DNA from: Gemmatimonadota bacterium
GTDB taxonomy: Bacteria; Gemmatimonadota; Gemmatimonadetes; Gemmatimonadales; GWC2-71-9
Assembly (NCBI GenBank): GCA_003222195.1
Contig: QHVB01000026.1
Location: forward strand, 71,662 to 135,661
Reading direction: 5' to 3'
DNA: 64,000 nt
Shown here: positions 5,124 to 58,997 of the stretch, piece by piece
How the letters are laid out: every line of letters starts with the position of its first letter
Position numbering within the stretch: the stretch's first letter is position 1
Notes under the pieces: model-generated
Database searches by the model: none
The model's input: the letters and a program-made list of their open reading frames with translations, nothing else
Told to the model about the DNA's origin: nothing
Made by a program: the position numbers and the translations under genes

Positions 5124-5166
5124 AAACCGTGCGTCGTGCGTGGTGCGTCGTGCGTGGGGGCGCCTG

Positions 5167-18916: not shown

Positions 18917-21162
18917 AGCCTCGGTTTGTACTTGTTGAGCGTCGCGTAGGGATCGGGCCAGGGCAGCGGATGACCCTGTTCGTAGGCCGCGTGTCTGGTC
19001 CAGTACGGATCCCACAGATGCGCGCGCGCGAGCACGCAGAGATCGGCGCGCCCCGCCGCCAGGATCGTGTTCACATCCTGATACGACGAGATATTGCCGA
19101 CCGCCATCGTCGCGATGCCCACGTCGTGCCGGATCCGGTCGGCGAACGGCGTCTGAAATTGCCGGCCATACTGCGGCTTGGCCTCGGCCACCGTCTGGCC
19201 CGCGGAGACGTCCGTGATGTCGCAGTCGTGCGCCTTGAGCAGGCGGGCTACTTCGACCGCATCCCCGGGCTGCATCCCCCCGGGCGCCCAGTCGACTGCC
19301 GAAATCCGCACGGACAGCGGTTTGTGGGCGGGCCAGGCGCCGCGCACCGCGTCGAACACCTCGAGCGGAAACCGCATCCGGTTCTCCAGCGAGCCGCCGT
19401 ACTCGTCGGTGCGCTGGTTCGTGAGCGGCGAAATGAAGCTCGCGAGCAGATAGCCGTGCGCGAAATGCAGCTCGAGGAGATCGAATCCGGCGTCGTGCGA
19501 CATCTGCGCCGCGCGGACGAAATGCTGCTTCACCTCGTCCATGTCGGCCCGGGTCATCTCCTTCGGCACCTGGCTGTAAGGGAAGTAGGGCAGCGGGGAC
19601 GCCGAGATGATCGGCCAGTTGCCGTCCGGGAGCGGCTCGTCCATGCCCTCCCACATCCGCTGCGTCGACGCCTTGCGTCCGGCATGGCCGAGCTGCATGG
19701 CGATCTTCGCGCCGCTGTTCACATGCACGAAATCCACGATGCGCTTCCACGCCGCAACATGGTCCGGCTTGTACATCCCGGTGCAGCCCGGCGAGATGCG
19801 GCCCTCGCGTGACACGTCGGTCATCTCCGTGAACACGAGCCCAGCGCCACCGATCGCGCGGCTCCCCAGGTGCACCAGGTGCCACTCGTTCGGCATGCCG
19901 TCCTCGGCGACGTACTGACACATCGGCGACACGACGACGCGATTGCTCAGCACGAGGTCGCGCAGCTTGAACGGCGTGAACATGGGAGGGGGTGCGCGGT
20001 GCGCGGTAAGCGGTACGCGGGACTGCTCTTCGGCGCGTTTCGCGTACCATTCGTCGATGCTTTCAACGAACTTTGGGTCGCGAACCTTCAAGTTGTCATG
20101 CGTTATCCTGAGGCTGCGGGTCAGGAGATTGAACGCGAACTGCAGCGGCTCGAGGTTCATGTAGCGTTCGGTGTCCTCGAACCACTGCAGGCTGACCTGC
20201 GCGGCGCGCTGCAGGCTCTCCACCGCCGGACGCCGCTCGGCCTCATACTCGGTGAGCGCGAACGGCACGTCGGGATGGCGCTGCAAGGCGTTCGCCAGCG
20301 CGATAGCGTCTTCGATCGCGAGCTTCGTCCCGGACCCCACCGAAAAATGCGCCGTGTGCGCCGCGTCGCCCACGAGCACGACGTTGCCGTGCGACCAGGA
20401 CGCGTTTTTGATCGTGACGAAATTGCGCCACAGCGAGCGATTTTTGAGGAGGCGATGGCCCTGGAGCTCGTCCTTGAAGAGCGCCTCGCAGAATTCGACC
20501 GTGTCGGCTTCGCTCGCCCGATCGAGTCCCGCCTTGCGCCACGCGGCCTCCGTGGTCTCGACAATCAACGTCGAATGCCCCTTCTCGTACTGGTAGGCGT
20601 GGACGCGCCACAGCCCGTGCTTATCGCCCTTGAAGTAGAAAGTGAACGCGGGGAAGGGACGGGTCGTGCCGAGCCAGACGAAACGGTTGGGCCGCTCGTC
20701 CAGCGTGGGCTGGAAGTGCTCGACATAGGTCGAGCGCACCACGCTGCTGAAGCCGTCGGCACCGACCACGAGATCGGCATCGGCGTACACCGCTGGATCG
20801 GTGACGTCGGTCCCGACCTCGATACACACGCCCAGCTCCTCACAGCGCCGCCCCAGGACCCGCAGCAGTGCGCGGCGCGACAGCCCGCTGAAGCCGTGTC
20901 CACCTGAGCGGATGACGTGGCCGCGGTAGTGGATGCTGATGTCGTCCCAATGAAAGAACTCGTGCGCCAGCGCGTCGTACGTCTCCGGATCGGCCGTCGC
21001 CAGGTTGTTTTGGGTCGCGTCCGAAAAGACCACGCCAAAGCCGTAGGTATCGTCTAGCCGATTGCGCTCCAGGATCGTGATCTCGTGCCGGGGATGCGCG
21101 TTCTTCATCAGGATGCCGAAGTAGAGCGCCGCGGCCCCGCCGCCAATCGTCACGATTCTCAT
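18913..21162 (-). CDS. bifunctional FAD monooxygenase / old-yellow-enzyme reductase (2-aminobenzoyl-CoA monooxygenase/reductase or salicylyl-CoA 5-hydroxylase family)
   Basis: 749 aa. N-terminal GxGxxG FAD hydroxylase ([28 protein letters not shown]) is fused to an OYE-like NADH:flavin oxidoreductase (SPMCQY...HLGSRA..., HFAHGYLL). Confidence 0.8.
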
Positions 21163-26722: not shown

Positions 26723-27514
26723 ATGGGAATCTGGAACAGCACGCTGGTGTACGTCGGCGCGCGCACGCTGCTCGCGGGAGCGATGGTCGCCCTGTTGCTG
26801 CGGCGTCAGGTTGGCCCGTGGTACGCCGGCGGTCAGGTCGTCTCCGATCTCTCCTGCGCGGCGTTTCTCCTGGCCTACGTCAATCCGGACATTCGTGACG
26901 ACGTCGGCGTGCTCGTCATTCCGCTGCTGCTGTTCGTGCTGTACTGGGAAGCGACGCGATTTCTCGACAACCGGCGCGCCGCCGCCGCTCGCGAGGATGA
27001 AGAAACCACGCTCGACACCATCTTACGGGTCTATGGCTCGATGTGGGCGTTCGGGTTTGTGATGCCGGCGGTCCTCGCGGGCGGCTTTCTGATGTTCGAG
27101 CTGCTGGCGCCCGGACAATGGCCGTTCCCCAATCCGCGGCCGGGGTTGGTGTGCAGTCCAAAGCGGCTCGAGCCAGGCACCGCGGTCACGCTACGCATGA
27201 TGGCCCCGCACGGTGCCGAGCTCAGCATATTCACGCCGGCAGGTCGCTCGCTAGTCATCGTGCCTTTCGTGACAAAGGGGACGCACGCGCCGGGTGCGGG
27301 CTTCGACTACATGGCCCAGTTGACGCTGCGGACCGATACGGTTGCCGGAGTCAGCGCGCCGGGCTCGCGTCCGGAACGCGTTTTCACAGATCCCGGCGTC
27401 TACGTGCTGCGGGTGAGCTCGGAGGCAGAGCTCAACGCGTCTGAGGTCTGCCGGGTACGCTACACGCCCGAAGATGCCGGAGGACGCCGACTTGGCATTC
27501 CTTCCACGCAATGA
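26723..27514 (+). CDS. hypothetical membrane protein (N-terminal TM helices, C-terminal beta-rich domain)
   Basis: High GC3 in this frame and hydrophobic helices. No family recognised. Confidence 0.55.
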   Translation: MGIWNSTLVYVGARTLLAGAMVALLLRRQVGPWYAGGQVVSDLSCAAFLLAYVNPDIRDDVGVLVIPLLLFVLYWEATRFLDNRRAAAAREDEETTLDTILRVYGSMWAFGFVMPAVLAGGFLMFELLAPGQWPFPNPRPGLVCSPKRLEPGTAVTLRMMAPHGAELSIFTPAGRSLVIVPFVTKGTHAPGAGFDYMAQLTLRTDTVAGVSAPGSRPERVFTDPGVYVLRVSSEAELNASEVCRVRYTPEDAGGRRLGIPSTQ

Positions 27515-27541
27515 GTCGTTTATGAGGAGCCATACTCCAAC

Positions 27542-28444
27542 ATGCGACCAGCTACCACCCATCGCGGTATCGTTTCTGTGCGCGACGTGATTATTCGTTG
27601 CGTTCCTCCGGCGTTCCGCGGCGTCCTCCGGCGTCTTTCGGTATCTGCCACCGCCGCCGTCACCCTCACCGCGCCCCTGTCGGCACAATCCGTTGAGTAC
27701 CGCTCTCCCGCCGGTGTGGAATACCGCGCGCAGCGCGACACGGGCGCTATCGCGCGCGCCGAAAGCGCACTGGTCGCCGACCCGCGCAACGTCGACCGCA
27801 TCATCGCGTTGGGCGTCGCGCAGTCCGGCGTCCGGCAGTATCGGGAAGCGATCGAAACCTTCACGCGCGGGCTGAAGCTCGCGCCCAATAATGCGTTGCT
27901 GTATCGCTGGCGGGGGCATCGCTATCTGTCGACTCGGCAGCTCGACCGCGCGATGGACGACCTGACTCGTGGCGCGCGGCTCGACAGCACCATCTACGGT
28001 ATCTGGTATCACCTCGGCATCGTACGCTTTGCGCGCCGCGACTTCGCGGGGGCCGTCGCCGCGTTCACGCGCGCGCTCCCGATCGCCCCCGATTCTGGCG
28101 AGCGCTCGGGCGCGACGGATTGGCTGTGGATGTCGCTGTCGCGCGCCGGACGCACCGCGGATGCGCAGGCGCTCCTCGATCGCCATCCCGATACACCGCG
28201 GGCCGGGAACGCGTATACGCAACGGCTCCGGCTCTATCGCGGTGAGGTATCGCCTGACTCCGTGTTCACGCCTGCCGATACCAGCGACATTCAGATCGCA
28301 ACACTCAGCTATGGCATCGGCAACTGGTATCTGGTCCGCCGCGATACGGCGCAGGCCCGGAAGTGGTTCGAGCGCTCGGTCGCCTCAGGTGGGTGGCCGG
28401 CGTTCGGGTTCATCCTGTCTGAGGTGGAGCTGCCCGGGCGATGA
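27542..28444 (+). CDS. tetratricopeptide (TPR) repeat protein, secreted
   Basis: Signal-like N-terminus and repeated TPR-like helices (ALGVAQSGVRQYREAIETFTRGLKLAPNNALL...). Confidence 0.7.
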   Translation: MRPATTHRGIVSVRDVIIRCVPPAFRGVLRRLSVSATAAVTLTAPLSAQSVEYRSPAGVEYRAQRDTGAIARAESALVADPRNVDRIIALGVAQSGVRQYREAIETFTRGLKLAPNNALLYRWRGHRYLSTRQLDRAMDDLTRGARLDSTIYGIWYHLGIVRFARRDFAGAVAAFTRALPIAPDSGERSGATDWLWMSLSRAGRTADAQALLDRHPDTPRAGNAYTQRLRLYRGEVSPDSVFTPADTSDIQIATLSYGIGNWYLVRRDTAQARKWFERSVASGGWPAFGFILSEVELPGR

Positions 28445-28764
28445 CTGCCGCCGACTTTCGGCGGATGGCGTTGCGCCTCCCCGGGGCCATCGAAGCGGCA
28501 CACATGGGCCACCCTGACTTTCGCGTCAGCGGCAAGATCTTCGCGACACTCGGATATCCCAAGCGCGACTTCGCGATGGTGCAGCTGACCCCGGAGCAGC
28601 AAGAGTTGTTCGTCAAGGCCGAGCCGAAGAGCTTCACGCCGGTGCCGGGCGGGTGGGGCAGGAAGGGCAGCACGCACGTGCTACTCAAGACGGCCAAGAA
28701 GTCCGCTGTACGGGAGGCGCTGACGGTGGCATGGCGGAACCGCACATCAAGGGAAACTCGATGA
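28441..28764 (+). CDS. MmcQ/YjbR family protein
   Basis: ALRLPGA...HPDFRVSGKIFATL pattern typical of the YjbR/CyaY-like fold family. ATGA overlaps on both sides. Confidence 0.7.
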   Translation: MTAADFRRMALRLPGAIEAAHMGHPDFRVSGKIFATLGYPKRDFAMVQLTPEQQELFVKAEPKSFTPVPGGWGRKGSTHVLLKTAKKSAVREALTVAWRNRTSRETR

Positions 28765-30143
28765 ACCTGGTTTTGGTCGTGGCGCTCGTTGCGCAAGCAC
28801 AAACACTCTCTCCCAATCAGCAGCGCGCGCGGGACATCTTCGAGCAGCTCATCAACATCAACACCACGGGCTCGAGTGGCAGTACGACGCTAGCGGCTAA
28901 CGCCATGGCGAAGCGGCTCACGGATGCGGGTTTCCCCGCGGCCGACGTGCAGGTGCTCGGCCGCGAAGGCTCGAAGAACTACAATCTCGTCGCCCGGTTT
29001 CGCGGCACGGGACGGGAGAAGCCGATCCTGTTGCTCGCGCATCTCGACGTGGTCGAGGCCAGGCGCGGCGACTGGTCGCTCGATCCGTTCACATTCGTCG
29101 AGTGCGACGGCTTCTTCTACGGCCGGGGCACGCAAGACATCAAGGACGGCGACGCGATTTTGGTGGCTACGTTGGTGCGACTCAAACAAGAAGGCTACCG
29201 GCCGAACCGCGACCTGATTCTGGCGTTGACGACCGGGGAGGAAGGCGGCAGCGACTATAACGGCGTGGAGTGGCTGCTCGCCCACCGGCGCGACCTGATC
29301 GATGCGGCGTACGTGCTCAACATGGACGCCGGCGATCCGGTCATCCTGAGCGGCAAGCGTTTGATGCGGCCCGTGCAGGCGAGCGAGAAGGTGTACGTGA
29401 CGTTCAAGCTCGAGGTACACAATCCCGGCGGTCACAGTTCGTTGCCCACCAGAGACAACGCGATCTATCGGCTCGCCGCCGCCCTCGGGCGTCTGAGTGC
29501 CTACGAATTCTCGGCGCAGCTCAACGAAATTACGCGCACCTTCTTCCAGCGCATGGCGGGTCTCCAGCAGGGGCAGCTCGCCGCGGACATGGCCGCCGTG
29601 GCAAGTCCGTCGCCCGATTCGGCGGCGATCCGCCGGCTTTCCGACATCAGTCCCCTGTATAACGCGCAGCTCCGCACGACCTGCGTGGCGACTGAGTTGT
29701 TGGGCGGTCACGCCGAGAATGCGTTGCCGCAGACGGCGTCGGCGACGGTCAATTGCCGGATGCTGCCGGGGACACCGTCGGAGGACGTGCAGAACACGTT
29801 GAGCAGAGTGGTGGCGGACACCGCAGTCAAGGTGAGCGTTGTGACGGCGGCGATCCCGAGTCCACCGTCGCCACTCACGCCGGCCATCACGGACCCCATC
29901 GAGCGGGTCACGAAACGGCTCTGGAACATCCCGGTCGTTCCGGTGATGGAAACGGGCGCCACCGATGGGCTGTATCTACGCAACGCCGGCATTCCCGTCT
30001 ACGGCGTCTCGGGGGTCTTCATCGACATTAACGATGTTCGCGCCCACGGCCGCGACGAGCGCGTTGGAGTGCAGGATTTCTATGATGGCGCCGAGTACAT
30101 CTATCGACTCGTGAAGGCGGTCACGGGAAACGGCGGCAGGTGA
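28761..30143 (+). CDS. M20/M25/M40 family metallopeptidase, secreted
   Basis: Signal peptide; LLLAHLDVV, DGFFYGRGTQDIKD, GEEGG and HGRDERV motifs. ATG 28761 overlaps the upstream stop (ATGA). Confidence 0.85.
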   Translation: MNLVLVVALVAQAQTLSPNQQRARDIFEQLININTTGSSGSTTLAANAMAKRLTDAGFPAADVQVLGREGSKNYNLVARFRGTGREKPILLLAHLDVVEARRGDWSLDPFTFVECDGFFYGRGTQDIKDGDAILVATLVRLKQEGYRPNRDLILALTTGEEGGSDYNGVEWLLAHRRDLIDAAYVLNMDAGDPVILSGKRLMRPVQASEKVYVTFKLEVHNPGGHSSLPTRDNAIYRLAAALGRLSAYEFSAQLNEITRTFFQRMAGLQQGQLAADMAAVASPSPDSAAIRRLSDISPLYNAQLRTTCVATELLGGHAENALPQTASATVNCRMLPGTPSEDVQNTLSRVVADTAVKVSVVTAAIPSPPSPLTPAITDPIERVTKRLWNIPVVPVMETGATDGLYLRNAGIPVYGVSGVFIDINDVRAHGRDERVGVQDFYDGAEYIYRLVKAVTGNGGR

Positions 30144-30250
30144 GACGGCGGCAGGTGAGACGGCGGCGAGGTGAAGCGGCGGCGAAGTGAAGCGGCGGCG
30201 AGGTGAGGCGGCGGCAGGTACAACGGCGGCGAGGGGCGGCGAAGGGCGGC
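30128..30250. repeat. tandem repeat, about seven units of 15-16 bp (CGGCGGCRAGGTGARR), grading into 10-bp GGCGGCGARG units
   Basis: CGGCGGC recurs at 30131, 30146, 30161, 30177, 30193, 30209 and 30224. The first unit contains the M20 peptidase stop codon. Confidence 0.85.
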
Positions 30251-30251
30251 G

Positions 30252-30611
30252 CTAGGTCGCGTCGTTCATCGAGATTTTTAGCTTCCACGTCAAGAAATGG
30301 GCCCTGCGTCCTTGGTTAGTAAGACTGGAGCACACGTCGTCCTTCAAATAGCCGAGCGCACCGGCCACCTCTAACTCATATTCGACCTCAGACAGCGATC
30401 CGAGAGACATGTCAAGAAAGCGTCGAAATTCGTTTCGGCCCTTTTTTGATGCGCCCTCGACGATATTTACGGCAGCCGAGAGCGCGGCACGGCGGAGTTG
30501 GGATGTCAGACCATATAGCTCATGTTTGGGAAAGCACTCGGTTGCCTTATAGACTGCAAGGACAAGCTTATGGCATTCCTGCCATGCCAAGAACCGTTTG
30601 TGTGTCGCCAT
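30252..30611 (-). CDS. four-helix-bundle protein (TIGR02436 / 23S rRNA intervening-sequence protein / Avd family)
   Basis: MATHKRFLAWQECHKLVLAVYKATECFPKHELYGLTSQLRRAALSAAVNIVEG...SLSEVEYEL is the family signature. Visibly lower GC than the flanks. The listed 519-aa ORF is a read-through artefact. Confidence 0.85.
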   Translation of the reverse strand: MATHKRFLAWQECHKLVLAVYKATECFPKHELYGLTSQLRRAALSAAVNIVEGASKKGRNEFRRFLDMSLGSLSEVEYELEVAGALGYLKDDVCSSLTNQGRRAHFLTWKLKISMNDAT

Positions 30612-30673
30612 GTGTCTTGATAGACAATTCGAGGTACAGAGCAGGACCATTTCCTCGCGCGGTTCATGTTTTT

Positions 30674-30710
30674 GCCGCCCCTCGCCGCCCTTCGCCGCCA
30701 TTCGCCGCCC
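30674..30710. repeat. C-rich decamer array (GCCGCCCYTC x about 3.7), inverted relative to 30225-30250
   Basis: GCCGCCCCTC GCCGCCCTTC GCCGCCATTC GCCGCCC. The first 26 nt are the near-perfect reverse complement of 30225-30250. The array ends 6 nt before the citrate synthase ATG. Confidence 0.8.
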
Positions 30711-30716
30711 TGTTAC

Positions 30717-31871
30717 ATGAGCTCTAATACCAGGCAGCGCGGTCTTGACGGTGTCGTCGCCGCCCAGACCCGCCTCAGCCACGTCGACGGTCAGGCCGGG
30801 GAGCTGATCATCGGCGGCTACCAGCTCAGCGAGCTGGCCGGTCGTGTCAGCTTCGAGGAGGCCGCGCATCTCCTGTGGCGCGGCGCATTGCCGGCCCCCG
30901 ACGAACTGGCGGCGCTGCGCCGCGAAATTGCCGAGCTCCGCGCGCTGCCGGAAGAAACGATGCACGTGGTGCGGGCCGCGGCGAAGACGCCGCCGATCGA
31001 TGCGTTGCGTATGGCCTGCGCGACCTTGTCGCTGGACCTCGCGCGCCCCGACGACATCTCGCCCGCGGCCGACCTCGCGGCCGCCAAGCTGCTCGCGGCG
31101 CGGTTTCCCACCGTGGTCGCGGCGCATGCGCGGCTGAGCGCGGGCAAGCAGCCGATCGCGCCGCGTACCGATCTGCCCCTGTCCGCGAACTTCCTTTACA
31201 TGGTGCACGGCAAGGAGCCCGATCCGATCGCGGCGCGCGCGATCGACACCTACTGGGTGACGGTGATCGATCACGGGATGAACGCGTCGACGTTCGCCGC
31301 GCGAGTGATCGCCAGTACCCGCTCCGACATCGTGAGCGCGTTGACGGGTGCGATCGGCGCATTGAAGGGGCCGCTGCACGGCGGCGCGCCGGGCCCCGTG
31401 CTCGACATGCTCAAGGACATCAGGTCCGCTGACCGCGCCGAGGCGTGGGTCCGCAACGAGCTGGCCGCCGGCCGGCGCATTATGGGCTTTGGGCACCGCG
31501 TCTACAAGGTGCGCGATCCGAGAGCCGACGTGCTCAGTAAAGTCGCCAACGAGATGAGCTCCGCGGCACTGGAGAACCGGCAGCTGTTCGATCTCGCGCG
31601 TGCCGCCGAGCAGACGATTCTCAAGGTGCTCGAGGAAGTGAAGCCCGGGCGGAATCTTCGGACGAATGTCGAGTTCTACACGGCGCTCGTGCTCCAGGCG
31701 CTGGGCCTGGACCCGCGGTCGTTCGTCGCCACATTTGCGTGCGGGCGCGTGGCGGGGTGGTGCGCTCATGTCATCGAGCAGCACGGTGAGGACCATCTCA
31801 TCCGGCCGCAATCTGAATACGTTGGCCCCCGAGGATTGAAGGTCGGGGGCGATAAAGGGCGGCGAACATGA
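30717..31871 (+). CDS. citrate synthase family protein (small type; citrate or 2-methylcitrate synthase)
   Basis: GLDGVVAAQTRLSHVDG, HGMNASTF, GALKGPLHGGA, GFGHRVYK and DPR motifs. ATG 30717 is preferred over the listed start. Confidence 0.9.
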   Translation: MSSNTRQRGLDGVVAAQTRLSHVDGQAGELIIGGYQLSELAGRVSFEEAAHLLWRGALPAPDELAALRREIAELRALPEETMHVVRAAAKTPPIDALRMACATLSLDLARPDDISPAADLAAAKLLAARFPTVVAAHARLSAGKQPIAPRTDLPLSANFLYMVHGKEPDPIAARAIDTYWVTVIDHGMNASTFAARVIASTRSDIVSALTGAIGALKGPLHGGAPGPVLDMLKDIRSADRAEAWVRNELAAGRRIMGFGHRVYKVRDPRADVLSKVANEMSSAALENRQLFDLARAAEQTILKVLEEVKPGRNLRTNVEFYTALVLQALGLDPRSFVATFACGRVAGWCAHVIEQHGEDHLIRPQSEYVGPRGLKVGGDKGRRT

Positions 31872-31987
31872 TCACACGATTGGCAATCGGGTTCCCCTTC
31901 AGCGGCAAGATTCGCTATACGCGGCTTTTCGTTCGCCGGGACGGACGGTGGCAAGCCGTGCTGATGCAACAGACTCCCATGCAATAA
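31868..31987 (+). pseudogene. 39-codon ORF resembling the C-terminal strand pair of a DUF4440/SnoaL-like protein (possible remnant or micro-protein)
   Basis: MITRLAIGFPFSGKIRYTRLFVRRDGRWQAVLMQQTPMQ. The ...RDGRWQ.V..Q.TP ending is typical of the NTF2-like fold. ATGA overlap with the citrate synthase stop, and lower GC3 than neighbours. Confidence 0.3.
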
Positions 31988-31990
31988 GAC

Positions 31991-33514: not shown

Positions 33515-34503
33515 CCGCGCCGGCACTCGGCAAGGATCTCACCGGGCTCGAGCACATGACGCCGGAGCAAATCCGCCTCATTCTCGACACGGCCGAGCCG
33601 TTCAAGGAAGTATCCGAGCGCCCCATCAAGAAGGTCCCGGCGCTGCGCGGCAAGACGATCGTCAATCTGTTCTTCGAAGCCTCCACCCGCACACGTATCT
33701 CCTTCGAGTTCGCCGAGAAGCGGCTCTCGGCCGACACCGTGAACGTGGCGGCGACCGGCTCTTCAGTCTCCAAGGGTGAAACGCTGGTCGACACGGCGCG
33801 GAATCTCGAAGCGATGCGGATCGACATGGTGGTGATCCGCCATCCGTCGTCGGGGGCGGCGGAATTCCTCGGCGATCGTATCGCCTCGAACGTGATCAAC
33901 GCCGGCGATGGCAAGCACGAGCATCCGACGCAGGCGCTGCTCGACCTGCTCACGATCCGGGACAAGCACGGCAAGATCGAAGGCCTCAAGGTCTGTCTCG
34001 TTGGCGACGTGCTGCACTCGCGCGTCGCGCGCTCGAACCTGTGGGGATTGTCGAAGCTCGGTGCGGAAGTCGCCGTCTGCGGACCGTGGACGCTCATGCC
34101 CCGGGGCATCCAGGAGCTGGGCGTCACCGTCTTCGGCCGCATCGAGGAAGCGATCGAGTGGGCCGACGTCCTCAACGTGCTGCGACTGCAGCTCGAGCGC
34201 ATGGAAAAGGGATTCATCCCGAGCCTGCGGGAGTACTACCGCGTCTTTGGGGTCACCCCCGAGCGGCTCGAGCGCTCACCCAAGCCGATCACGATCATGC
34301 ACCCCGGGCCCATGAATCGCGGTGTCGAGATCGATTCGCGCGTGGCCGATGGCCCCCACAGCGTCATCCTCGATCAAGTCACGAATGGCGTCGCCGTGCG
34401 GATGGCGGTGCTGTATCTGCTCGCCGGTGGCCGGGCCGAGCTCGCGGATGCCGCGAAGCGAGGGGGAGGGGGAGGGGGAGGGGCAGGGGGGGGGAGCGAG
34501 TGA
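33511..34503 (+). CDS. pyrB: aspartate carbamoyltransferase catalytic subunit
   Basis: STRTR, HPTQ and HPGPMNRG motifs. ATGA overlap with pyrR. Unusual Gly-rich C-terminal tail. Confidence 0.92.
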
Positions 34504-40787: not shown

Positions 40788-42379
40788 TGGCGATCGACAC
40801 AGGAGCAGTGGACCGCGCGCTCGGCGCGATCGGCACGACCTTCCGGCTGACACGCCTGTATCCGCCGTCGCATCCGGCGGTACTCGAAGCGATGCGCCAC
40901 ATCACCGCCTCGCTGCCGGCACTCGCCGGGCTGGGGTCGGTGGAGTTGAAGATCGGCGCGACGGGACTGCACTGGCACGGCCAGCATCTGCTGCCGCGCA
41001 ACACCCAAGTCGCCGAGCTTGCCGGCCTGTTGTTCGCGCGCGGCGTCCGTTCGATTCAGATCAATCCCGGTGTTACGGCGGAGCACTGGCTCGGTCTGTT
41101 TGGCGTCGCCGTAGGCAACGTTGCACCCGACGACGCTGTGCTCGGGCGCATTGCGGTGCTGCTCGGCCGCCGCGCCAGCCAGCGGCTCTCCGCCTCCCGC
41201 GTGCTTGAGGAAGTCGCACCTGCTGCGCCGCCCGCCGCCCCCTCGCCGCCGGTTTCAGTCGACGCCCCTTCGCCGCCGGTTCAATCGCCGCCCCCCGCCG
41301 CCCCATCGGCGCCGGTTTTCATCGCTGCCCCTGCGCCGCCTGCAGAGACGGTCGGACCGACGCGCCAGAGCAGTGCGTTCCGGCCCGATGTGCTGCCGGC
41401 CGATGTCGAAGCGCGACGCGCCGTCACTGCGTTGCAGGCCGCGTCGCGACCCGAAGACCAGCGGACGATGATCGACAAGCTGCGGCAGCTCACGCCGGAC
41501 GTGATCGCATTGCGCGACATCGGCGCCGTGGCCGAGGTCGTGGCCGGGCTCGATCGGTCGCTCGGCAAGATTCAGGATCCCGAGATGCAAGAGGCCATCG
41601 GGGATGTGGCGGGGGCGCTTGCGGACGAGGCTATAGTGGAGCGTATGGTGACGCGGCTTGGCGAGCCCCGTGTCCCGCCTGCCGAGCGCGCGCATCTGGT
41701 GAATGCGGTGGGGGCGTTGGGCGCCGTCTCAGCGGGTCTCGTGGTGGATGCGTATCTGCACGCGGCGCCGGAGCTGCGCGAGGCGTATCGCGCAGCCATG
41801 CGGGCGGCTGGAGAACGCACGGTGGAACTGCTGCAGAGCCGCGTTTCCAGCAAAGTACCCGAGGTGGTCGCGGCCGCGGCGGAGTTCTTAGGGCTGAGTG
41901 GCAGCCCGGAAGTCGCCGAATCGCTCATCGGACTTACGCACCACGCCGATGAGCGCGTGCGGGAAGCGGCGCTCCTCGGTCTCGCGGAGCTGGGTGGACG
42001 AGAGATCGCGCGGCCCGCGATGCCGGCGTTGAAAGACGAATCGGTGTTGGTGCGCACGGCCGCGGCGCGCGCGATTGCGGCGGCGGGCGATATGGGGGCG
42101 ACGACGGTCATGGTGCGACGGCTGGAGCAGGAGAAGGACGAGGGGGTATTGGCTGCGTTGCTGAAGGCGATCGGCCAGCTGGGAGCCAAGGAAGCTCTGG
42201 AAGTGCTCGCGAAGTACGCCGAACCCGGCGGGAGACCGCGGCGCACGCCGTTCGTGCGCGCGGCCGCCATCGAAGGACTGGCGAGTCTGGATCGAATGGA
42301 GGCAAAAGCGTTGCTCGAGCTCTATGCGCGGGACAAGGAGCCCACGGTGAAGCGCGCCGCGGAGGCGTCACTCCGATGA
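40787..42379 (+). CDS. HEAT-repeat protein with N-terminal YPxxHP domain and Pro-rich linker
   Basis: C-terminal PBS-lyase-type HEAT repeats (DERVREAALLGLAEL, DESVLVRTAAARAIAA, DKEPTVKRAAEASL). Its stop forms an ATGA overlap with the moxR start. Confidence 0.75.
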   Translation: MAIDTGAVDRALGAIGTTFRLTRLYPPSHPAVLEAMRHITASLPALAGLGSVELKIGATGLHWHGQHLLPRNTQVAELAGLLFARGVRSIQINPGVTAEHWLGLFGVAVGNVAPDDAVLGRIAVLLGRRASQRLSASRVLEEVAPAAPPAAPSPPVSVDAPSPPVQSPPPAAPSAPVFIAAPAPPAETVGPTRQSSAFRPDVLPADVEARRAVTALQAASRPEDQRTMIDKLRQLTPDVIALRDIGAVAEVVAGLDRSLGKIQDPEMQEAIGDVAGALADEAIVERMVTRLGEPRVPPAERAHLVNAVGALGAVSAGLVVDAYLHAAPELREAYRAAMRAAGERTVELLQSRVSSKVPEVVAAAAEFLGLSGSPEVAESLIGLTHHADERVREAALLGLAELGGREIARPAMPALKDESVLVRTAAARAIAAAGDMGATTVMVRRLEQEKDEGVLAALLKAIGQLGAKEALEVLAKYAEPGGRPRRTPFVRAAAIEGLASLDRMEAKALLELYARDKEPTVKRAAEASLR

Positions 42380-47741: not shown

Positions 47742-50125
47742 TTCTTTCCCTGCTGGCCGTGGCGGTGTTCGTCCAAGGGGCGGAAGTCACTGCGAGCGTC
47801 GATCGCACACAGATTCGCGTCGGTGAGGAGTTGACGCTGACGGTGCGCGCGCGCACGCGCTCTGCCGATGCCGTCGAGATCGTGCTTCCGTCACTGAACG
47901 GATTCGCGATCGTCGGCTCCCGCGATATGACGGAAGTCGCGATCAACGGAGCGTCGGGATCCACTCGGACGACGGTTCGAGAGCTGCAACTACGCGCCCA
48001 GCAGGCCGGAGCGCTGCTGATCGGGCCGGTGCGGGCACGGCAGGGCGTGAGCGTCGTGGCGACCGATCCGATTCTGGTGACAGTCGACAGTGCGGCGGAT
48101 CGCACCGCCCTGACGCTGAGCCCGCTGGCGCGCTCGCTGCTCGAAAGCACGCCCGCGCCCGTCTCGCGCCGCGCCGATCGCGTCGCGCTCACCATGCTCG
48201 TGCCGAGCGACACGGTTTACAACGGGCAGCAGGTCGATTTGATCGCGGCGGCTTGGATCCCGCGGGAGTTGAACCAGCGCATGCGGCGGCCGCCGCTGCT
48301 GACGCTGGTCACGCCGGAGGGCGTGTGGGCGTATCCCGCCGCGACCTCATCGGGCGTCGCCCTCTCGCGGCAGGTCGGCGGGCGCTGGATGGATCTGTTC
48401 ATCGCGCATGAGGTCGTCTTTCCACTCACGGCCGGCCGCTTGATCATCCCGCCGGCGTCCGTCGAGTACGCGCTTCCCGTGACCTTCTCATTCTTCAGCC
48501 GTGAGGAGCGGTACACACTGCGCAGCGACTCGATCGCGCTCACCGTCTTGCCGCTGCCCCCGACGAATCCCGCTACGAACGTCGTCGGCGAAGGCTTGCG
48601 TCTCGATCTGCAAGTCGATCCCGCGGCGACGCGCGTGGGAGAGCCCGTCGACGCGTCGGTCACAATCACGGGCGTCGGCAACATGGCGCTGTGGCCCGAG
48701 CCTCCGCTGCGTTGGCCAGCGGGATTTCGCGTGTACCCCGCGCAAATCGAGGTCCGCGTAGCCCCGCAGGCCGGCCGGATCGCCGGCAGCAAGACGTTCC
48801 ATTATCTGGCCGTGCCGGATTCCACTGGCAACTTCAAGTTGGCCGAGGTGCGGTATCCCTACTTCAACGCGACCAGCGGTCGCTACGAGACGGCGACCGC
48901 GACGCCCAAGGCGTTCGCCGTTGCTGCTGGGGCCGAGCCCCGGGCGGCGCGGGTGCTTCCACCGCTGCTGCCGGCGCTGGGCGAGCGTCCCAGCGAGCGC
49001 CTGGGCCAGCGCCTTGGCTGGGAAGGATGGCTCCTGGTGCTGGTGGTGCCGCCGCTCGTCGCAGGGCTGGCGTTGCGCCGCCGGGGCAGGGGGGAGGAGC
49101 GTGCGACTGCCGCCGTGGCCGCCGGTGCGGGGCTCAGCCCTCTCGGTCGACTCGAGCGCGAGTTCCTCGCCGTGCTCGCAAGCCACGTGTCCGATCCGTT
49201 CGCGCGCGACGGCGACGGTCTCGCGCAGGCATTGCGCGCCGCAGGCGTTGACAGCGCCGTCGCTGACCACGTGAAGCGATTGCGCGACCGGCTGCGCGCC
49301 GCGCGCTACGGACCGCGCGGGCTGGGTGATGCGGCGGAGCTCGGGGCGGAAATACAGCAGGTGCTGCGCGTGTTGGGCGCCGAGGGACCGGTACGGACGA
49401 GGCGACCGCATCCCGTCGTGACGACGATTGTTTGCGTGGGGATTCTCGTGGTAGGGTCGCAGCATGCTGCGCCCCTACACGCCCAAACTGCCACGCCGCA
49501 GCCCCCAACGCCCAGCGCCGAGGCGCTGTTCGAGGCGGGTGCGTTGCGCGCGGCCGCCGATTCATTCGCGGCACGCGCCAGCCGCGATCCCGACGATCCG
49601 GCGCATTGGTACAACCTGGGCGCGACGCTGTATCGCGCCGGGGCAGACGGCAAGGCGACCGCGGCGTGGATTCGCGCGGCGCGCCTCGATCCGCGCAATC
49701 AGGCGATTCGGCGCGCCCTGCAGCTGCTGCCGCCGCCCGATCCCGTGACGGAGCAGCTGCTTCGTGTCGGTTGGGCGACGCCCGTCGAGTGGGGATTCTT
49801 CGCTGCGGCGAGCTGGGTTATCCTGTGGCTCGCCGTCGCCTTCGGCGGCGGCCGCCGTCTGGTGATCGCGTTGGTCGGGGCCGTCACGGCAGCGGCCGCG
49901 GTACTCGGAGCGATCGAATGGCAGCGGCGGGATCAGCCGGTCGCGGTGGTGATCGCGGACGCGGCGCCGGTCCGGACCGCGCCGTACGGGGCGGCGAGCG
50001 TGGCGGCGACTGTTCCGGCAGGTGGCGCGTTGCTCGTCAGCCGGAGCTATGGCCCGTGGCGCGAGGTACACCGCAAAGACGGAATTCACGGGTGGGTGCT
50101 GGGAGAGGAGATCCTCGGACTGTGA
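47738..50125 (+). CDS. BatD-like protein continuous in frame with a BatE-like (TPR + TM + SH3-like) module
   Basis: N-terminal signal and the BatD-type repeat VTASVDRTQIRVGEELTLTV. From about 49414 there is a second signal-like segment, then TPR, two TM helices and a C-terminal SH3-like end. No stop separates the two parts. Confidence 0.75.
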   Translation: MILSLLAVAVFVQGAEVTASVDRTQIRVGEELTLTVRARTRSADAVEIVLPSLNGFAIVGSRDMTEVAINGASGSTRTTVRELQLRAQQAGALLIGPVRARQGVSVVATDPILVTVDSAADRTALTLSPLARSLLESTPAPVSRRADRVALTMLVPSDTVYNGQQVDLIAAAWIPRELNQRMRRPPLLTLVTPEGVWAYPAATSSGVALSRQVGGRWMDLFIAHEVVFPLTAGRLIIPPASVEYALPVTFSFFSREERYTLRSDSIALTVLPLPPTNPATNVVGEGLRLDLQVDPAATRVGEPVDASVTITGVGNMALWPEPPLRWPAGFRVYPAQIEVRVAPQAGRIAGSKTFHYLAVPDSTGNFKLAEVRYPYFNATSGRYETATATPKAFAVAAGAEPRAARVLPPLLPALGERPSERLGQRLGWEGWLLVLVVPPLVAGLALRRRGRGEERATAAVAAGAGLSPLGRLEREFLAVLASHVSDPFARDGDGLAQALRAAGVDSAVADHVKRLRDRLRAARYGPRGLGDAAELGAEIQQVLRVLGAEGPVRTRRPHPVVTTIVCVGILVVGSQHAAPLHAQTATPQPPTPSAEALFEAGALRAAADSFAARASRDPDDPAHWYNLGATLYRAGADGKATAAWIRAARLDPRNQAIRRALQLLPPPDPVTEQLLRVGWATPVEWGFFAAASWVILWLAVAFGGGRRLVIALVGAVTAAAAVLGAIEWQRRDQPVAVVIADAAPVRTAPYGAASVAATVPAGGALLVSRSYGPWREVHRKDGIHGWVLGEEILGL
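49451..49478. repeat. second copy of the REP-like palindrome (GTAGGGTCGCAGCATGCTGCGCCCCTAC, one mismatch), inside coding sequence
   Basis: Matches 37218-37245 except T for G at 49457. Encodes VGSQHAAPLH in the batD/E frame. Confidence 0.8.
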
Positions 50126-51825
50126 GCGTCGTCGCGCGCGCGCGCGTCCAGCTGTTGGCGGGAAACGTCGCGGATCAGATCGCCGCCGGTGAAGTCGTCG
50201 AGCGACCGGCATCCGTGGTGAAAGAGCTGGTCGAGAACGCGCTCGATGCCGGTCCCCAGACGGTGCGGGTAGAGTTGGAAGACGGCGGCAAGACACTGAT
50301 CCGTGTCAGCGACGACGGCGCGGGCATGGACCGCGAAGACGCGCGCCTCGCGTTGCAGCGCCACGCCACCAGCAAGATCCGGACGGCGGCCGATCTCATC
50401 GGCGTAGCGACGTTCGGGTTTCGCGGCGAGGCGCTGCCGGCCATCGCCTCGGTGTCGCGCTTCGAGCTGGAGACCTGTGGCGACGGCGACGCTGCCACGC
50501 GCATTCGGGTCACCGGCGGAAGAGTCGAGAGTGAAGCGGAGTCCGTCCGTCAGCGCGGGACGACCGTCACGGTGCGCGGCTTGTTTTACAACACGCCCGC
50601 GCGGCGCAAATTCCTGCGGGCCACGGCGACCGAGACGCGCGCCGCCGTCGAGGCGCTCACCGTCCTCGCCCTCACGCGTCCCGATGTCGCCTTCGCGCTG
50701 ACGAGCGATGGGCGCGGCTTGCTCGACTGCCCGCCGGCCGCGCGGCTGATCGACCGCGTGGGAGCCCTGTGGGGTGCCGAGCTCGCCGAGACACTGCTCG
50801 CGGTGTCGCATCGCGCCGGACCTTTGGAAGTGACCGGGTTCGCCCAGCGCCCCGCGCAAGCCCGCCCCGCGGGCCGCAAAGGCTACGTGTTCGTACGCGG
50901 CCGCCCGATTCGTGATCCGTTCATTCTCCGCGCCGCGGAGGCCGGCTATCGCTCCACCATCGCGCCCGGCGATCGGCCGTCGCTGCTCCTGTTTCTCGAG
51001 CTGCCGGGAGACGCAGTGGATGTGAACGTGCACCCCACCAAGCTCGAGGCGCGGTTTCGGGACAAGTTTTTTGTCGAGAAGGTGGTGGAGGAGGCTGTGA
51101 GGGAGGCGCTGGCGCCTCTGGATTCGGCTGCACCATTGGGTGGTGCCGGGTTTCAGGTGTCAGGTGCCTGGTTTCAGACCGAGGGATCGGCGCACGCCGC
51201 ATCGGGCATCCCTCTCGACCTCTTCGGTGCGCGGTCCCTGACACCCGACACCCGACACCAGACACCGCTTTTGCAGGTCTTCGAGACGTATATCCTCTTC
51301 CAAGCCGACCAGGGCGTCGCGATCGTGGATCAGCATTCGGCCCACGAGCGCGTGCTATACGAAGACGTGATGCGTCAGCTCTCGGGCGATGGCGCGCCGG
51401 CGCAACGTCTGCTGCTTCCTCTCACGCTGGACTTTGCGCCGGCCGAGCTCGATGCGATCGAGGCGCATCGCGAGCTGCTGGCGCGCATCGGGTACGAGAT
51501 CGAGCCGTTCTCCGGCCGAAGCATCGTGGTGCACACGGCGCCCAATCCGCATCCCCGGTTCGAAGCGGCGCGCTGCCTGCAGGAGTTGGTCGCCGATCTC
51601 GCTGGCGGCCGGTTTGGCGGCTGGCAGAATCGACTCGAGCGGTTTGCCGCCACGTACGCCTGCCGCGCCGCGATCAAGGCGGGCCAGACACTCGAGGCCG
51701 ACGAGATGCGCCAGCTCATCGTCCGGCTGCTTTCTGCCACACTCCCCGCGCACGACGTGCATGGCCGGCCCTCGATGGTCCAGTTGCCAAAGGAAGAGCT
51801 GGAACGGCGTTTTGGCCGCACCTGA
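50122..51825 (+). CDS. mutL: DNA mismatch repair protein MutL
   Basis: GHKL ATPase N-terminus (IAAGEVVERPASVVKELVENALDAG, DDGAGM) and C-terminal dimerisation domain (QHSAHERVLYE). The GTG start overlaps the upstream stop (GTGA). Confidence 0.9.
   Translation: MSVVARARVQLLAGNVADQIAAGEVVERPASVVKELVENALDAGPQTVRVELEDGGKTLIRVSDDGAGMDREDARLALQRHATSKIRTAADLIGVATFGFRGEALPAIASVSRFELETCGDGDAATRIRVTGGRVESEAESVRQRGTTVTVRGLFYNTPARRKFLRATATETRAAVEALTVLALTRPDVAFALTSDGRGLLDCPPAARLIDRVGALWGAELAETLLAVSHRAGPLEVTGFAQRPAQARPAGRKGYVFVRGRPIRDPFILRAAEAGYRSTIAPGDRPSLLLFLELPGDAVDVNVHPTKLEARFRDKFFVEKVVEEAVREALAPLDSAAPLGGAGFQVSGAWFQTEGSAHAASGIPLDLFGARSLTPDTRHQTPLLQVFETYILFQADQGVAIVDQHSAHERVLYEDVMRQLSGDGAPAQRLLLPLTLDFAPAELDAIEAHRELLARIGYEIEPFSGRSIVVHTAPNPHPRFEAARCLQELVADLAGGRFGGWQNRLERFAATYACRAAIKAGQTLEADEMRQLIVRLLSATLPAHDVHGRPSMVQLPKEELERRFGRT
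51149..51266. repeat. inverted pair of heptamer arrays (GGTTTCA GGTGTCA GGTGCCT GGTTTCA ... TGACACC CGACACC CGACACC AGACACC) within the mutL linker
   Basis: The 28-nt arms at 51149-51176 and 51239-51266 are 22/28 complementary. An inner 7-bp stem GAGGGAT/ATCCCTC lies at 51181-51187 and 51208-51214. Confidence 0.8.
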
Positions 51826-52801
51826 TACCCGACACCTGACACCTGTCATTGTTGGCCCCACCGGCGTCGGCAAAACCGCCGTCGCGGTCGCGCTCGCATC
51901 TCTCACGCCGATCACCGTCATTTCCGCCGATGCGCGCCAGGTGTATCGCGGCCTCGATATCGGGACCGCCAAGCCCGATCGCGCCACGCTGGCCCGCGTG
52001 CCGCATCGTGGACTCGATCTGGTCACTCCGGGAGAGTCTTACAGCGCGGGACGGTTTGCGCGCGATGCCGCGGCGTGGATCGCGGAAGTGCGCGCCACCG
52101 GCGTGGCACGCCAAATCGTCGTCGTGGGAGGAACTGGCCTGTACGTCCGCGCGATCGCGGACGGACTGTTCCGCGAGCCGCCGTTCGATCCCGCGCGGCG
52201 CGAACAGTTGCGCCAGTGGTCCGAATCGCTCGAAGCCGGCGACCTGGCCCGGTGGGCCGGCCGGCTCGATCCCAACTTTCCCGGCGGCGGCCGCCAGCGT
52301 GCGGCCCGCGCCATCGAGGTGGCGCTTCTGACCGGCCACGCCCTCTCCTGGTGGCAACGGGAGGCGCGCGAGAGCGGTATGCTCCGTCCGTGGTACATTC
52401 ACCTCACCATGCCGCGCGAGGTGCTGCATCGCCGGCTCGCGGCCCGTGTGGACGAGATGTTGCGGGCCGGCCTCGTGCAGGAAGTGCAGCGCCAGCTCGC
52501 GGCCGGCGTGGCGCCCGATGCGCCGGGACTCGACGGGATCGGGTATCGAGAGGTTGTGGCGATGCTGGAGGGCGACTTGCCGGAGAGCGCGTTGTCGCAA
52601 GCCATTCTGGTATCGACGCGTCGCTACGCGAAGCGCCAGGAGACGTGGTTCAGAAACCAACTGCGTGGGGACGAGGGACGGGGGAAGGGGGACGGGGTGT
52701 GGATGCTGGATGCCACCGAGTCGCCGGACATGTTAGCCGCTAAAATTCTCGGGCGTTGGCATACCCTTCCCCCGTCCCTCGTCCCCCGTCCCGGCCTATG
52801 A
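51812..52801 (+). CDS. miaA: tRNA dimethylallyltransferase MiaA
   Basis: [16 protein letters not shown]-loop, ISADARQVYRGLDIGTAKP, RRYAKRQETWFR. The start is uncertain (TTG 51812 chosen; CTG 51836 possible). Confidence 0.88.
   Translation: MAAPDTRHLTPVIVGPTGVGKTAVAVALASLTPITVISADARQVYRGLDIGTAKPDRATLARVPHRGLDLVTPGESYSAGRFARDAAAWIAEVRATGVARQIVVVGGTGLYVRAIADGLFREPPFDPARREQLRQWSESLEAGDLARWAGRLDPNFPGGGRQRAARAIEVALLTGHALSWWQREARESGMLRPWYIHLTMPREVLHRRLAARVDEMLRAGLVQEVQRQLAAGVAPDAPGLDGIGYREVVAMLEGDLPESALSQAILVSTRRYAKRQETWFRNQLRGDEGRGKGDGVWMLDATESPDMLAAKILGRWHTLPPSLVPRPGL
51823..51843. repeat. third heptamer array (TGATACC CGACACC TGACACC) at the mutL stop / miaA start
   Basis: Same unit and orientation as 51239-51266. 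Includes the mutL TGA. Confidence 0.7.
52667..52786. repeat. 23-bp perfect inverted repeat (GGGGACGAGGGACGGGGGAAGGG / CCCTTCCCCCGTCCCTCGTCCCC) with 74-nt spacer inside the miaA 3' end
   Basis: Arms at 52667-52689 and 52764-52786, verified base by base. The G-rich arm is built of GGGACGN heptamers. Confidence 0.9.
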
Positions 52802-58679: not shown

Positions 58680-58997
58680 ATGCCGAGGTGGTTGGCGCAT
58701 TTGCTCCTGGTGGTGGGGTGGCTTCTCACTCCCGCATGGGCCTGGGCAGCGTCGCACGTCGGCCTCTGGCTCGCTGCGCTGGTCGCGCTGCGGTTCGAGA
58801 ATCCCCTCGTCATGCTCGCCATCGCGGGTGCCGGGGCGCTCGTGTTCGGGTTCGCCGTGCTCTGGACCTGGGTTCGCTTCATGCGCCGTCTCCCGCATCT
58901 CCTCTCCCATCACATGGCGCCCCGCGAGGGGACAGGGACAGGGGCCGCGGCCGGGGCAGGGGCGGAGGAACATGCCGCGATTGCGGCCGCGGATTGA
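58680..58997 (+). CDS. hypothetical small membrane protein
   Basis: High-GC3 frame, three hydrophobic helices, Gly/Ala-rich tail. Overlaps the next gene by 26 nt. Confidence 0.5.
   Translation: MPRWLAHLLLVVGWLLTPAWAWAASHVGLWLAALVALRFENPLVMLAIAGAGALVFGFAVLWTWVRFMRRLPHLLSHHMAPREGTGTGAAAGAGAEEHAAIAAAD

Follow-up and report, generated by a model that had tools for sequence, protein, structure and literature searches.

Within a 64,000-nucleotide (nt) stretch of DNA from a Gemmatimonadota bacterium (contig QHVB01000026.1, positions 71,662–135,661; hereafter the window), the region 30127–30711 is probably one copy of a widespread, selfish cassette that resembles the intervening sequences (IVSs) of ribosomal RNA (rRNA) genes but lies outside rRNA. 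It consists, in order, of a tandem array rich in G, a leader some 70 nt long, an open reading frame (ORF) of the PF05635 family and a C-rich tandem array, a build that would make it the non-rRNA counterpart of the ORF-bearing 23S IVSs, and it seems to have been inserted antisense into a formerly tightly coupled junction between a peptidase gene and a citrate synthase gene. The ORF belongs to the family known as ‘23S rRNA intervening sequence protein’ (PF05635/TIGR02436, also S23p). The four-helix-bundle (FHB) proteins of this family are among the commonest bacterial proteins of unknown function. Most of the interest of the locus lies in the family-wide pattern that it exposes: the bracket-plus-gene unit recurs in many contexts and in several phyla, with unit sequences that are specific to each lineage.

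On the plus strand, the locus reads M20-family peptidase gene (28758–30143), G-rich array, FHB ORF in minus orientation, 62-nt spacer, C-rich array and, directly downstream of the cassette, the plus-strand citrate synthase gene (30717–31871). Profile matches identify the two host genes (Peptidase_M20, 99 bits, and NF006596, 614 bits; PF00285, 396 bits). The left array as a whole spans 30127–30251 and combines units of two lengths: an outer array of 6.9 copies of a 15/16-nt unit (ACGGCGGCAGGTGAG type; 30127–30234), G-rich on the plus strand, and an inner array of 2.7 copies of GGCGGCGAAG (30225–30251), which forms the left arm of an inverted repeat. The right arm is the right array (30674–30711), with 3.8 copies of GCCGCCCTTC, C-rich on the plus strand; left and right arrays are inverted copies of each other. 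A repeat finder paired 30222–30250 with 30674–30702 (29 nt, 90% complementary) or, in an alternative register, 30215–30251 with 30683–30719 (37 nt, 84% complementary). The two-unit pattern GGCGGCGARGGGCGGCGARG has six matches in the window at up to three mismatches, where 0.26 would be expected; all but one of them fall within the two arms. The last codons of the peptidase gene and its stop codon (30141–30143) fall inside the outer left array, the C terminus (...GNGGR*) ending in the first outer unit, and the citrate synthase ATG at 30717 stands 6 nt beyond the end of the right array (30710/30711).

The FHB gene itself (30252–30611, minus strand; 119 amino acids) starts with an ATG at 30611 and ends with a stop codon at 30252–30254, immediately after which the inner left array begins; its 62-nt leader (30612–30673) separates the start codon from the right array. 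Windowed GC content is 0.52–0.56 over 30300–30699 and 0.62–0.73 in the flanks. The initial annotation of this DNA had described a 119-amino-acid minus-strand gene in a low-GC segment, set between a peptidase and citrate synthase and bracketed by an inverted repeat of 10-bp units whose right arm ends 6 nt before the citrate synthase ATG, and the ORF table, profiles, GC profile, sequence and repeat finder bear this out. Its inner decamer arms are real, but it had overlooked the array of 16-nt period, which makes the left side much longer than the right and the two sides unequal. An Rfam scan of 29500–31500 returned no rRNA and no other family. A longer, 149-amino-acid gene model (P0001), which starts inside the array, was set aside: near-identity among relatives begins at the ATG of the 119-amino-acid model, and many close homologues have 116–119 amino acids.

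Relatives of the locus (numbered here with an L; about 120 were compared overall) were examined in species-representative genomes and metagenome contigs by tblastn with the FHB, citrate synthase and peptidase proteins, and homologues carried the names Gemmatimonadetes or Gemmatimonadales. The exact FHB protein occurs on 16 contigs with one shared neighbourhood, and many relatives have the order citrate synthase–FHB–peptidase, with arrays. In L011 and L051, by comparison, the peptidase gene abuts the citrate synthase gene with neither an FHB gene nor arrays, and in L051 the GTG start of citrate synthase is overlapped by the TGA of the peptidase; the peptidase C terminus is not alike at filled and empty sites. 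Because the empty sites also lack arrays, gene and arrays come and go together here. Downstream of citrate synthase there is a second site, occupied in five loci (L010, L011, L012, L051 and L052) by cassettes that are again bracketed by GGCGGCG-type inverted arrays, a unit type shared between cassettes at the two sites; the unit type therefore travels with the gene and is not tied to the site. Comparison with relatives, which the initial annotation had proposed as a way to find other copies and empty sites, thus yielded both.

The divergence profile of the locus points to horizontal exchange. Between the window and five relatives (L008, L009, L039, L041 and L044), the FHB ORF is 96–98% identical in DNA sequence (92–97% at third codon positions), whereas the first 600 nt of citrate synthase are 82–84% identical (61–67% at third positions) and the end of the peptidase gene 76–80%. 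A 100-nt sliding comparison with four diverged genomes gave identities of 0.93–1.00 across about 30250–30700 and 0.65–0.88 outside, with the step at the arrays; in L008 and L039, which have other leader types, high identity extends only to about 30600. Multiple alignment revealed the same ORF joined to three leader types, and array copy number differs in every genome, from 2 to more than 8 outer 15/16-nt units at this place. As identity in the ORF far exceeds that in the flanks and drops at the arrays, these data indicate that the cassette was exchanged between diverged genomes: the relationships of the FHB gene are decoupled from those of the host genes, and the cassette, or at least its ORF, was recently exchanged or replaced along a tract ending at the arrays, which makes it more recent than the genomes that carry it. 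The idea of a mobile cassette, raised in the initial annotation, is therefore supported both by the empty junctions and by cassette identities of 93–100% beside flank identities of 65–88%. A caveat is that recombination is common in these lineages generally. In L047, a tract within citrate synthase (window 31100–31500) is 93–98% identical and the rest of the locus about 75–87%, which shows that homologous recombination is frequent among these Gemmatimonadales independently of the cassette.

Inverted arrays are a trait of the family as a whole. We scored arms by locally aligning the 200 nt upstream of a gene with the reverse complement of the 200 nt downstream and taking the best score, with 360-nt intervals from the same contigs as controls. 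Scores of at least 30 were reached by 69 of 103 FHB genes and 3 of 449 control intervals, and scores of at least 40 by 51 of 103 and none of 449, an enrichment of about 100-fold. When 107 cassettes were grouped into 26 clusters by genomic context, 18 clusters had arms. Among 118 FHB genes, arrays stood on both sides in 70, upstream only in 32, downstream only in 8 and on neither side in 8, counts in which some flanks end with the contig. The units vary by lineage (GACGGTAA, GGTCAGGC, GGCAGGGA, TAGACGGG, GGCGGATA, ACGACGGTAGGTAAA, GTAGACA and GTAGCGA), with periods mostly of 8, 15, 10 and 7 nt. Polarity is nearly invariant: 99 of 102 upstream arrays are G-rich and 77 of 78 downstream arrays are C-rich. 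The polarity of an inverted repeat reads alike from either strand and is therefore a property of the element, not of gene orientation. The geometry is also regular, with a median of 11 nt from the stop codon to the downstream array and of 71 nt from the upstream array to the start codon. Copy number is close to four at every unit length (medians of 4.6 for 7-mers, 4.0 for 8-mers, 3.8 for 10-mers and 4.4 for 15-mers), which fits a counting of units better than a fixed stem length. One FHB clade with 50% identity, situated next to a second, type-I-like citrate synthase (L015–L017, L073, L074, L078, L080 and L081), has only a short upstream (CGGATCG)n array with no downstream partner, and it explains many of the armless cassettes.

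The same build is found within rRNA. Among finished sequences recovered by tblastn of a plasmid collection, plasmid AZO_p2 of Azospirillum lipoferum (L128) carries a 23S rRNA gene (Rfam LSU model, 1015.7 bits) that is interrupted by an FHB ORF. This ORF is flanked by TCAGAGGACGGATGACAGAGGACGGAGGACAGAAAGG on its 5′ side and CCGTCCTCTGTCTTCTGTCATCCGTCTTCTGA on its 3′ side, which by eye are inverted arrays of about 7-nt units, the G-rich one first. The Coxiella IVS has tandem GACAGAT heptamers in variable number at its 5′ end and a 28-bp terminal stem within which RNase III cuts; RNase III excision has been shown for the IVSs of Coxiella, Salmonella and Leptospira, and IVSs were long ago proposed to be remnants of mobile elements (PMC4990558). 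The L128 arms and the Coxiella heptamers lend support to the earlier suggestion that the window holds the stem-plus-ORF build of an rRNA IVS at a non-rRNA site.

Like the ORF-bearing 23S IVSs of Leptospira, Coxiella, Brucella and L128, the window cassette has its PF05635 ORF in the loop of a long stem made by inverted repeats at the termini, with arms of short tandem units, and its 5′ arm is G-rich as in L128. It differs from them in lying outside rRNA, between protein-coding genes and antisense to them; in having promoter-like motifs in a leader of about 62 nt, a feature absent from L128 and, according to PMC4990558, from Coxiella; in its unit lengths of 10 and 16 nt; and in an ORF under purifying selection, whereas the Coxiella ORF is decaying. 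Moreover, RNase III excision is demonstrated for IVSs, whereas for the window cassette it is a prediction. Of the features that define an IVS, the cassette thus has complementary termini able to form a long stem and an S23p ORF in the loop, but not the location in 23S rRNA (helix 25 or 45). We therefore do not file it as an IVS, but as an IVS-like cassette in a protein-coding operon.

Further examples come from other phyla and genera. Cyanobacterial FHB copies, among them copies on plasmids, have heptamers of the GTCAGGA, GGCAGAA, GGAGATA or CAGGTGA type on their flanks, and several sit inside operons, co-oriented with their neighbours and with an array directly against the ATG. Such operon sites include cas6|cas4 in Pseudanabaena and Anabaena 90 and cmr2|cmr3 in Picosynechococcus (L122, L125 and L126). 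In L122, the adjacent arrays are both in direct orientation (about 15 copies of AAAGCTA upstream and about 10 of AAAGCCA downstream), with an inverted partner further upstream. The PF05635 family is reported as found in cas loci (PMC3936711; PMC10910872), and the reported association of 23S_rRNA_IVP with CRISPR may reflect cassette insertion and not CRISPR function. In Gemmatirosa kalamazoonensis KBS708, an FHB cassette at about 1007670–1007924 of NZ_CP007129 has GGGCAGGA/CTCCTGCC arrays. We found no literature linking the FHB family in general to flanking inverted tandem arrays, in a search that covered subscription journals thinly and in which absence is not proof, and none connecting FHB cassettes, IVSs and the gene-less array pairs of Xanthomonas and Geobacter described below.

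The encoded protein has the marks of a working member of its family. It matches PF05635 (E = 5.8e-29, 100.9 bits; cut-off 33.8) and TIGR02436 (E = 3.6e-28, 98 bits; cut-off 24), and its nearest relative of solved structure is XCC0516 (PDB 2GSC; E = 2.2e-22, residues 3–98), which is described as five four-helix bundles. PMC3936711 gives the family motif GxxRxxxSxxxNxxE. The core of this motif, R-x3-S-x3-N-x2-E, is present as R41-AAL-S45-AAV-N49-IV-E52, and in a 13-sequence alignment across phyla R41, S45 and E52 are invariant and N49 nearly so. The match to the phage Avd family is weak (phrog_3206, E = 5e-5). Compared with diverged alleles at the same site in genomes whose host genes have diverged to a similar degree (L010, L046, L048, L050 and L053; DNA 70–84% identical), codon positions 1 and 2 are 84–94% identical and position 3 is 41–61% identical. 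This substitution pattern indicates that purifying selection acts on the ORF as on that of a normal working protein; it is therefore not a dead passenger. No defence-system match was returned by PADLOC, and a search of viral contigs with a four-sequence alignment gave no confirmed match.

How the gene is expressed bears on what the arrays can do. A comparison of 79 distinct leaders revealed no Shine–Dalgarno sequence, but weakly conserved motifs, one AAWTGRT-like about 40 nt and one TATYMA-like 6–12 nt upstream of the ATG, about 22 nt apart. A sigma-70 consensus scan of 30000–30900 found no promoter. The leader motifs may be the FHB gene’s own promoter, which would yield a leaderless mRNA bearing only the C-rich 3′ array. 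Given such a promoter, a stem would be expected only in transcripts coming in from outside, which is the situation of an insert in an operon or in rRNA. A transcript spanning the whole cassette, for example by read-through from peptidase to citrate synthase, would then fold the arrays into a GC-rich duplex of 26–37 bp. RNase III would cut this duplex as it does in rRNA IVSs, and the insert would leave the host RNA without ligation, the flanking cistrons remaining usable. In line with the folding of the minus-strand transcript suggested in the initial annotation, minimum-energy and centroid structures of 30120–30725 on both strands close the ORF by the array stem, and the fold of the FHB-sense strand has an energy of −234.7 kcal/mol (z = −3.2). 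RNase III cleavage of such a stem is a natural expectation, plausible by analogy with rRNA IVSs.

The arrays also meet the host genes at the level of translation. A stop codon is carried on the inward-reading (G-rich) strand by 55 of 101 distinct units, compared with 33.9 ± 4.0 in per-unit shuffles, and 38 units have stops in all three frames (20.0 ± 3.2 in shuffles). We then took open frames of at least 150 codons that read into a cassette, with displaced controls: 29 of 61 inward ORFs end inside the downstream array (controls, 6 of 183) and 14 of 85 inside the upstream array (controls, 8 of 255). Judged from these frames, a host gene next to a cassette very often takes its stop codon from the array. 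More speculatively, the C-rich, G-poor 3′ array on the FHB mRNA could be a place for Rho to load and could thus protect the convergent host gene. Besides supplying stop codons and bounding the exchanged segment, the arrays would lengthen and shorten by slippage and offer the homology at which a resident cassette is replaced by an incoming one.

Several results weigh against reading the region as a selfish, IVS-like cassette. About one third of the homologues have no detectable inverted pair. The array lengths of the two sides correlate moderately (rho 0.39) and are often unequal; at the window locus they are about 125 and 38 nt, so most of the left array cannot be in a stem. The host-sense fold (−242 kcal/mol, z = −1.2) is overall no better than shuffles. 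Of the arm mismatches, 133 are transversions, 64 could pair by wobble in the FHB-sense RNA and 70 could do so in the antisense RNA; we had looked here for an asymmetry that would tell which strand’s RNA is constrained, and with no G–U wobble bias on either strand no RNA-level constraint is singled out. It is from rRNA IVSs that pairing in vivo and cleavage by RNase III are extrapolated, and, if the promoter is in the leader, the FHB gene’s own mRNA lacks the 5′ arm. Nor is there an obvious agent of movement. On the 16 contigs, no transposase, integrase or reverse transcriptase lies within 3 kb on either side of the FHB gene, where the genes are those for OTCase, PRTase, 2-hydroxyacid dehydrogenase, citrate synthase, M20 peptidase, YjbR and a TPR protein. 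Comparison of filled and empty sites gave no clear target-site duplication: the GTGA(G) stop/start overlap is possibly duplicated, in genomes that are highly diverged and with a unit that itself contains GTGAG. The mechanism could therefore be homologous recombination of an ordinary kind that follows the uptake of DNA. Candidate modes of movement are homologous replacement at the arrays after such uptake, protein-guided recombination and an RNA intermediate. Finally, arrays without the gene do occur at unrelated sites in the window, an outcome that the initial annotation had named as counting against its proposal; formally it does so, but we read these arrays as counterparts of ORF-less IVSs.

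Other explanations of the arrays have to be set beside this one. They could be protein-binding sites, on DNA or on a single strand, with the FHB protein, a homopentamer in the solved relative 2GSC, binding four to five units at each end in the manner of a transposase and driving recombination, maintenance or autoregulation. We consider this unlikely, although it is compatible with the IVS-like cassette and does not exclude it; the binding is a prediction by analogy. It would account for a copy number near four whatever the unit length, which a fixed stem length does not predict, and for the position of the arrays at the bounds of the exchanged segment; different FHB clades in one genome (L010 and L017, both DATLXS01) also have different units. 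Avd, a member of the same superfamily, binds nucleic acid and a reverse transcriptase. That the closest solved relative, 2GSC, is described as five four-helix bundles (PMC3936711) and that the family includes Avd (phrog_3206, E = 5e-5; PMC10053308) point the same way. Descent of the whole cassette from a common ancestor would, however, explain the covariation of unit and protein just as well; units of 16 and 10 nt are mixed in a single array; inverted arrays that lack a gene and are built of other units exist in the window and by the dozen in Xanthomonas and Geobacter; and binding of single-stranded repeats needs no inverted arrangement. Distinctly less probable, in our judgement, is that the arrays are a general, slippage-prone hairpin punctuation (terminators, insulators or recombination hot spots) in which FHB genes land or between which they are captured. 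The gene-less pairs at 51149–51266 and 52667–52792 and the unpaired G-rich arrays at gene junctions could be so explained, as could the paired arrays in Geobacter metallireducens operons and the 70–75 pairs of Xanthomonas, and the L047 tract shows recombination to be frequent in these Gemmatimonadales anyway. What speaks against it is that L011 and L051, the empty sites, are free of arrays, so that at this site array and gene arrive together; that GGCGGCG-type units are common to cassettes at two sites and travel with the gene; that arms are enriched about 100-fold over control intervals; and that a conserved geometry, with a median of 11 nt after the stop codon and a leader of about 71 nt, argues for one unit.

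Two further readings carry little weight. G-quadruplex formation by related heptamer repeats was studied by Rehm et al. (PMC4692102), and the G-rich arrays might be quadruplex elements such as those proposed for the Xanthomonas GGGAATC repeats, the inverted partner being incidental. The window units do give GGG or GGGG runs every 10 nt, but many FHB-flanking units have no G runs (GTAGACA, GTAGCGA, GTCAGGA, GACGGTAA and AAAGCTA) and a complementary C-rich partner is almost always present, which makes this reading very improbable. Least probable of all, and close to nil, is that the FHB gene is the Avd gene of a diversity-generating retroelement (DGR). The weak phrog_3206 match (E = 5e-5) and PMC10053308, which names PF05635 as the family usually matched by Avd proteins, would favour it, and Avd is indeed distantly related within the same four-helix-bundle superfamily. 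DGRs are not, however, described as having tandem arrays on their flanks, the neighbours are housekeeping genes, and no reverse transcriptase or other DGR-type gene was called within 3 kb on the 16 contigs, where no specific search for template and variable repeats was made; the absence of a reverse transcriptase nearby led us to reject the reading. MITEs (miniature inverted-repeat transposable elements) and foldback transposons share with the IVS-like cassette inverted termini of tandem sub-repeats, presence/absence polymorphism, gene-less derivatives and decay by internal deletion. Unlike them, the window cassette encodes no transposase, and its termini vary by lineage where theirs are conserved.

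Taking the IVS-like cassette as the preferred reading, we tentatively extend it, with rather low confidence, to a distinct, phylum-spanning class of mobile elements made of FHB genes and inverted arrays, in which the pentamer would recognise the four to five units at each end, in RNA or in DNA, and help the cassette to be copied or recombined, perhaps together with a reverse transcriptase of the host, as Avd does in DGRs. If so, rRNA IVSs would be the members of this class that landed in rRNA, the ‘CRISPR-associated’ 23S_rRNA_IVP genes in cas operons would be members of the same class, and the class would have its non-autonomous derivatives in the gene-less heptamer and octamer pairs of Xanthomonas, Geobacter and cyanobacteria. 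What rRNA IVSs are and where they come from has been a question since about 1990. Should the rRNA inserts be the tip of a general class of cassettes, one testable system would serve for three puzzles: the identity of IVSs, the PF05635 genes in cas and other operons, and the paired heptamer and octamer arrays. There are practical consequences as well. The arrays extend or truncate neighbouring ORFs in annotation and supply their stops, they break metagenome assemblies, and arrays and cassettes may lead guilt-by-association screens to label FHB genes as ‘CRISPR-associated’.

Two gene-less inverted pairs lie elsewhere in the window. One (51149–51177, GGTGTCA in 4.1 copies, and 51240–51266, GACACCC in 3.9 copies; 62 nt apart) is within the ORF 49432–51825, which is mutL-like by eye, probably in a linker region; a third array (CACCTGA in 3.9 copies, 51819–51845) is found at the stop of this ORF and the start of the next gene. 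The other (52667–52697, GGGGACG in 4.4 copies, and 52764–52792, CCCGTCC in 4.1 copies; 66 nt apart) is translated as a C-terminal tail of about 45 amino acids of an ORF ending at 52801, miaA-like by eye, whose stop overlaps the ATG at 52800 that we take as the start of the next gene. Similar pairs are documented in other bacteria. PMC4692102 reports 70–75 gene-less inverted pairs (GGGAATC) per Xanthomonas genome, and its supplement has a (GGGAATC)4 array overlapping the annotated start of XCC0516, the crystallised family member. PMC2700814 lists 24, 21 and 8 pairs in Geobacter metallireducens, annotated as ‘global regulator binding sites’ of classes 1–3; the two example pairs are about 80–100 bp apart, and one pair lies between proB and proA. 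The paired arrays of Xanthomonas and Geobacter, like those of cyanobacteria, are short tandem hepta-, octa- or nonanucleotides in about three to five copies on opposite strands, often in operons; those of the first two genera resemble the gene-less pairs of the window, and the heptamers of TCAGRAK type on the flanks of Nostoc and Trichormus FHB genes are reverse complements of MTYCTGA, the class-3 unit of Geobacter. The pairs differ from the window cassette in being reported as gene-less and interpreted as quadruplex elements or regulator sites, and the searched parts of PMC4692102 and PMC2700814 connect them neither to the FHB family nor to IVSs.

Decay of cassettes is visible in the window and in its relatives. 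An FHB relic of 23 codons (MAPHKRLIAWKEC...; 27465–27533, minus strand) matches residues 1–23 at 52% identity (tblastn, E = 0.004); on its upstream side, on the same strand, is a degenerate G-rich 10/11-nt array (27600–27634), and the relic overlaps the end of the ORF 26723–27514 and the called start of the TPR protein gene. In L076 and L052, FHB genes are truncated after ...NIVEGA(S) and fused to a C-array. Around citrate synthase, the contig of L052 has three FHB copies (1056–1406, 2501–2860 and 4172–4333): a tandem pair on the downstream side and, at the junction with the peptidase, a truncated one; this truncation and that in L076 (2501–2665) are independent and fall at almost the same codon, which suggests a hot spot of microhomology deletion. 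The truncated genes and the relic make it plausible that gene-less pairs derive from cassettes. The spacers of the two gene-less pairs (51178–51239 and 52698–52763) were nevertheless not recognisable as deleted FHB cassettes, with scores against 108 cassettes of 28 and 23 and shuffle maxima of 29 and 34; a resemblance noted by eye proved not to be significant. The GGGCGGCGAA motif after the citrate synthase stop codon (about 31855–31880) was likewise rejected as a cassette remnant (score 28; shuffle maximum 31).

At 31869–31990, only about the last 32 residues of a small gene remain (...GFPFSGKIRYTRLFVRRDGRWQAVLMQQTPMQ*), a gene that L011 has in a full version of about 143 amino acids, followed by a second FHB cassette; on this comparison, the window has lost most of the small gene, and the site there is without a cassette. 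A repeat of 26/36-nt period at 41226–41340 (CGCCCCCTCGCCGCCGGTTTCAATCGA), apparently Pro-rich coding sequence, shares the CGCCGCC core and has no inverted partner. Finally, the genome is peppered with G-rich tandem arrays. Those at gene junctions in the window, unpaired or weakly paired, include CGTGCGT at 5128–5157, GGTACGC at 19991–20020, AGGGGC at 58927–58963 and GAGGGG at 34460–34494, the last of which encodes the Gly-rich tail of an ORF that ends at 34503 with a TGA overlapping a GTG, a possible start of the next gene.

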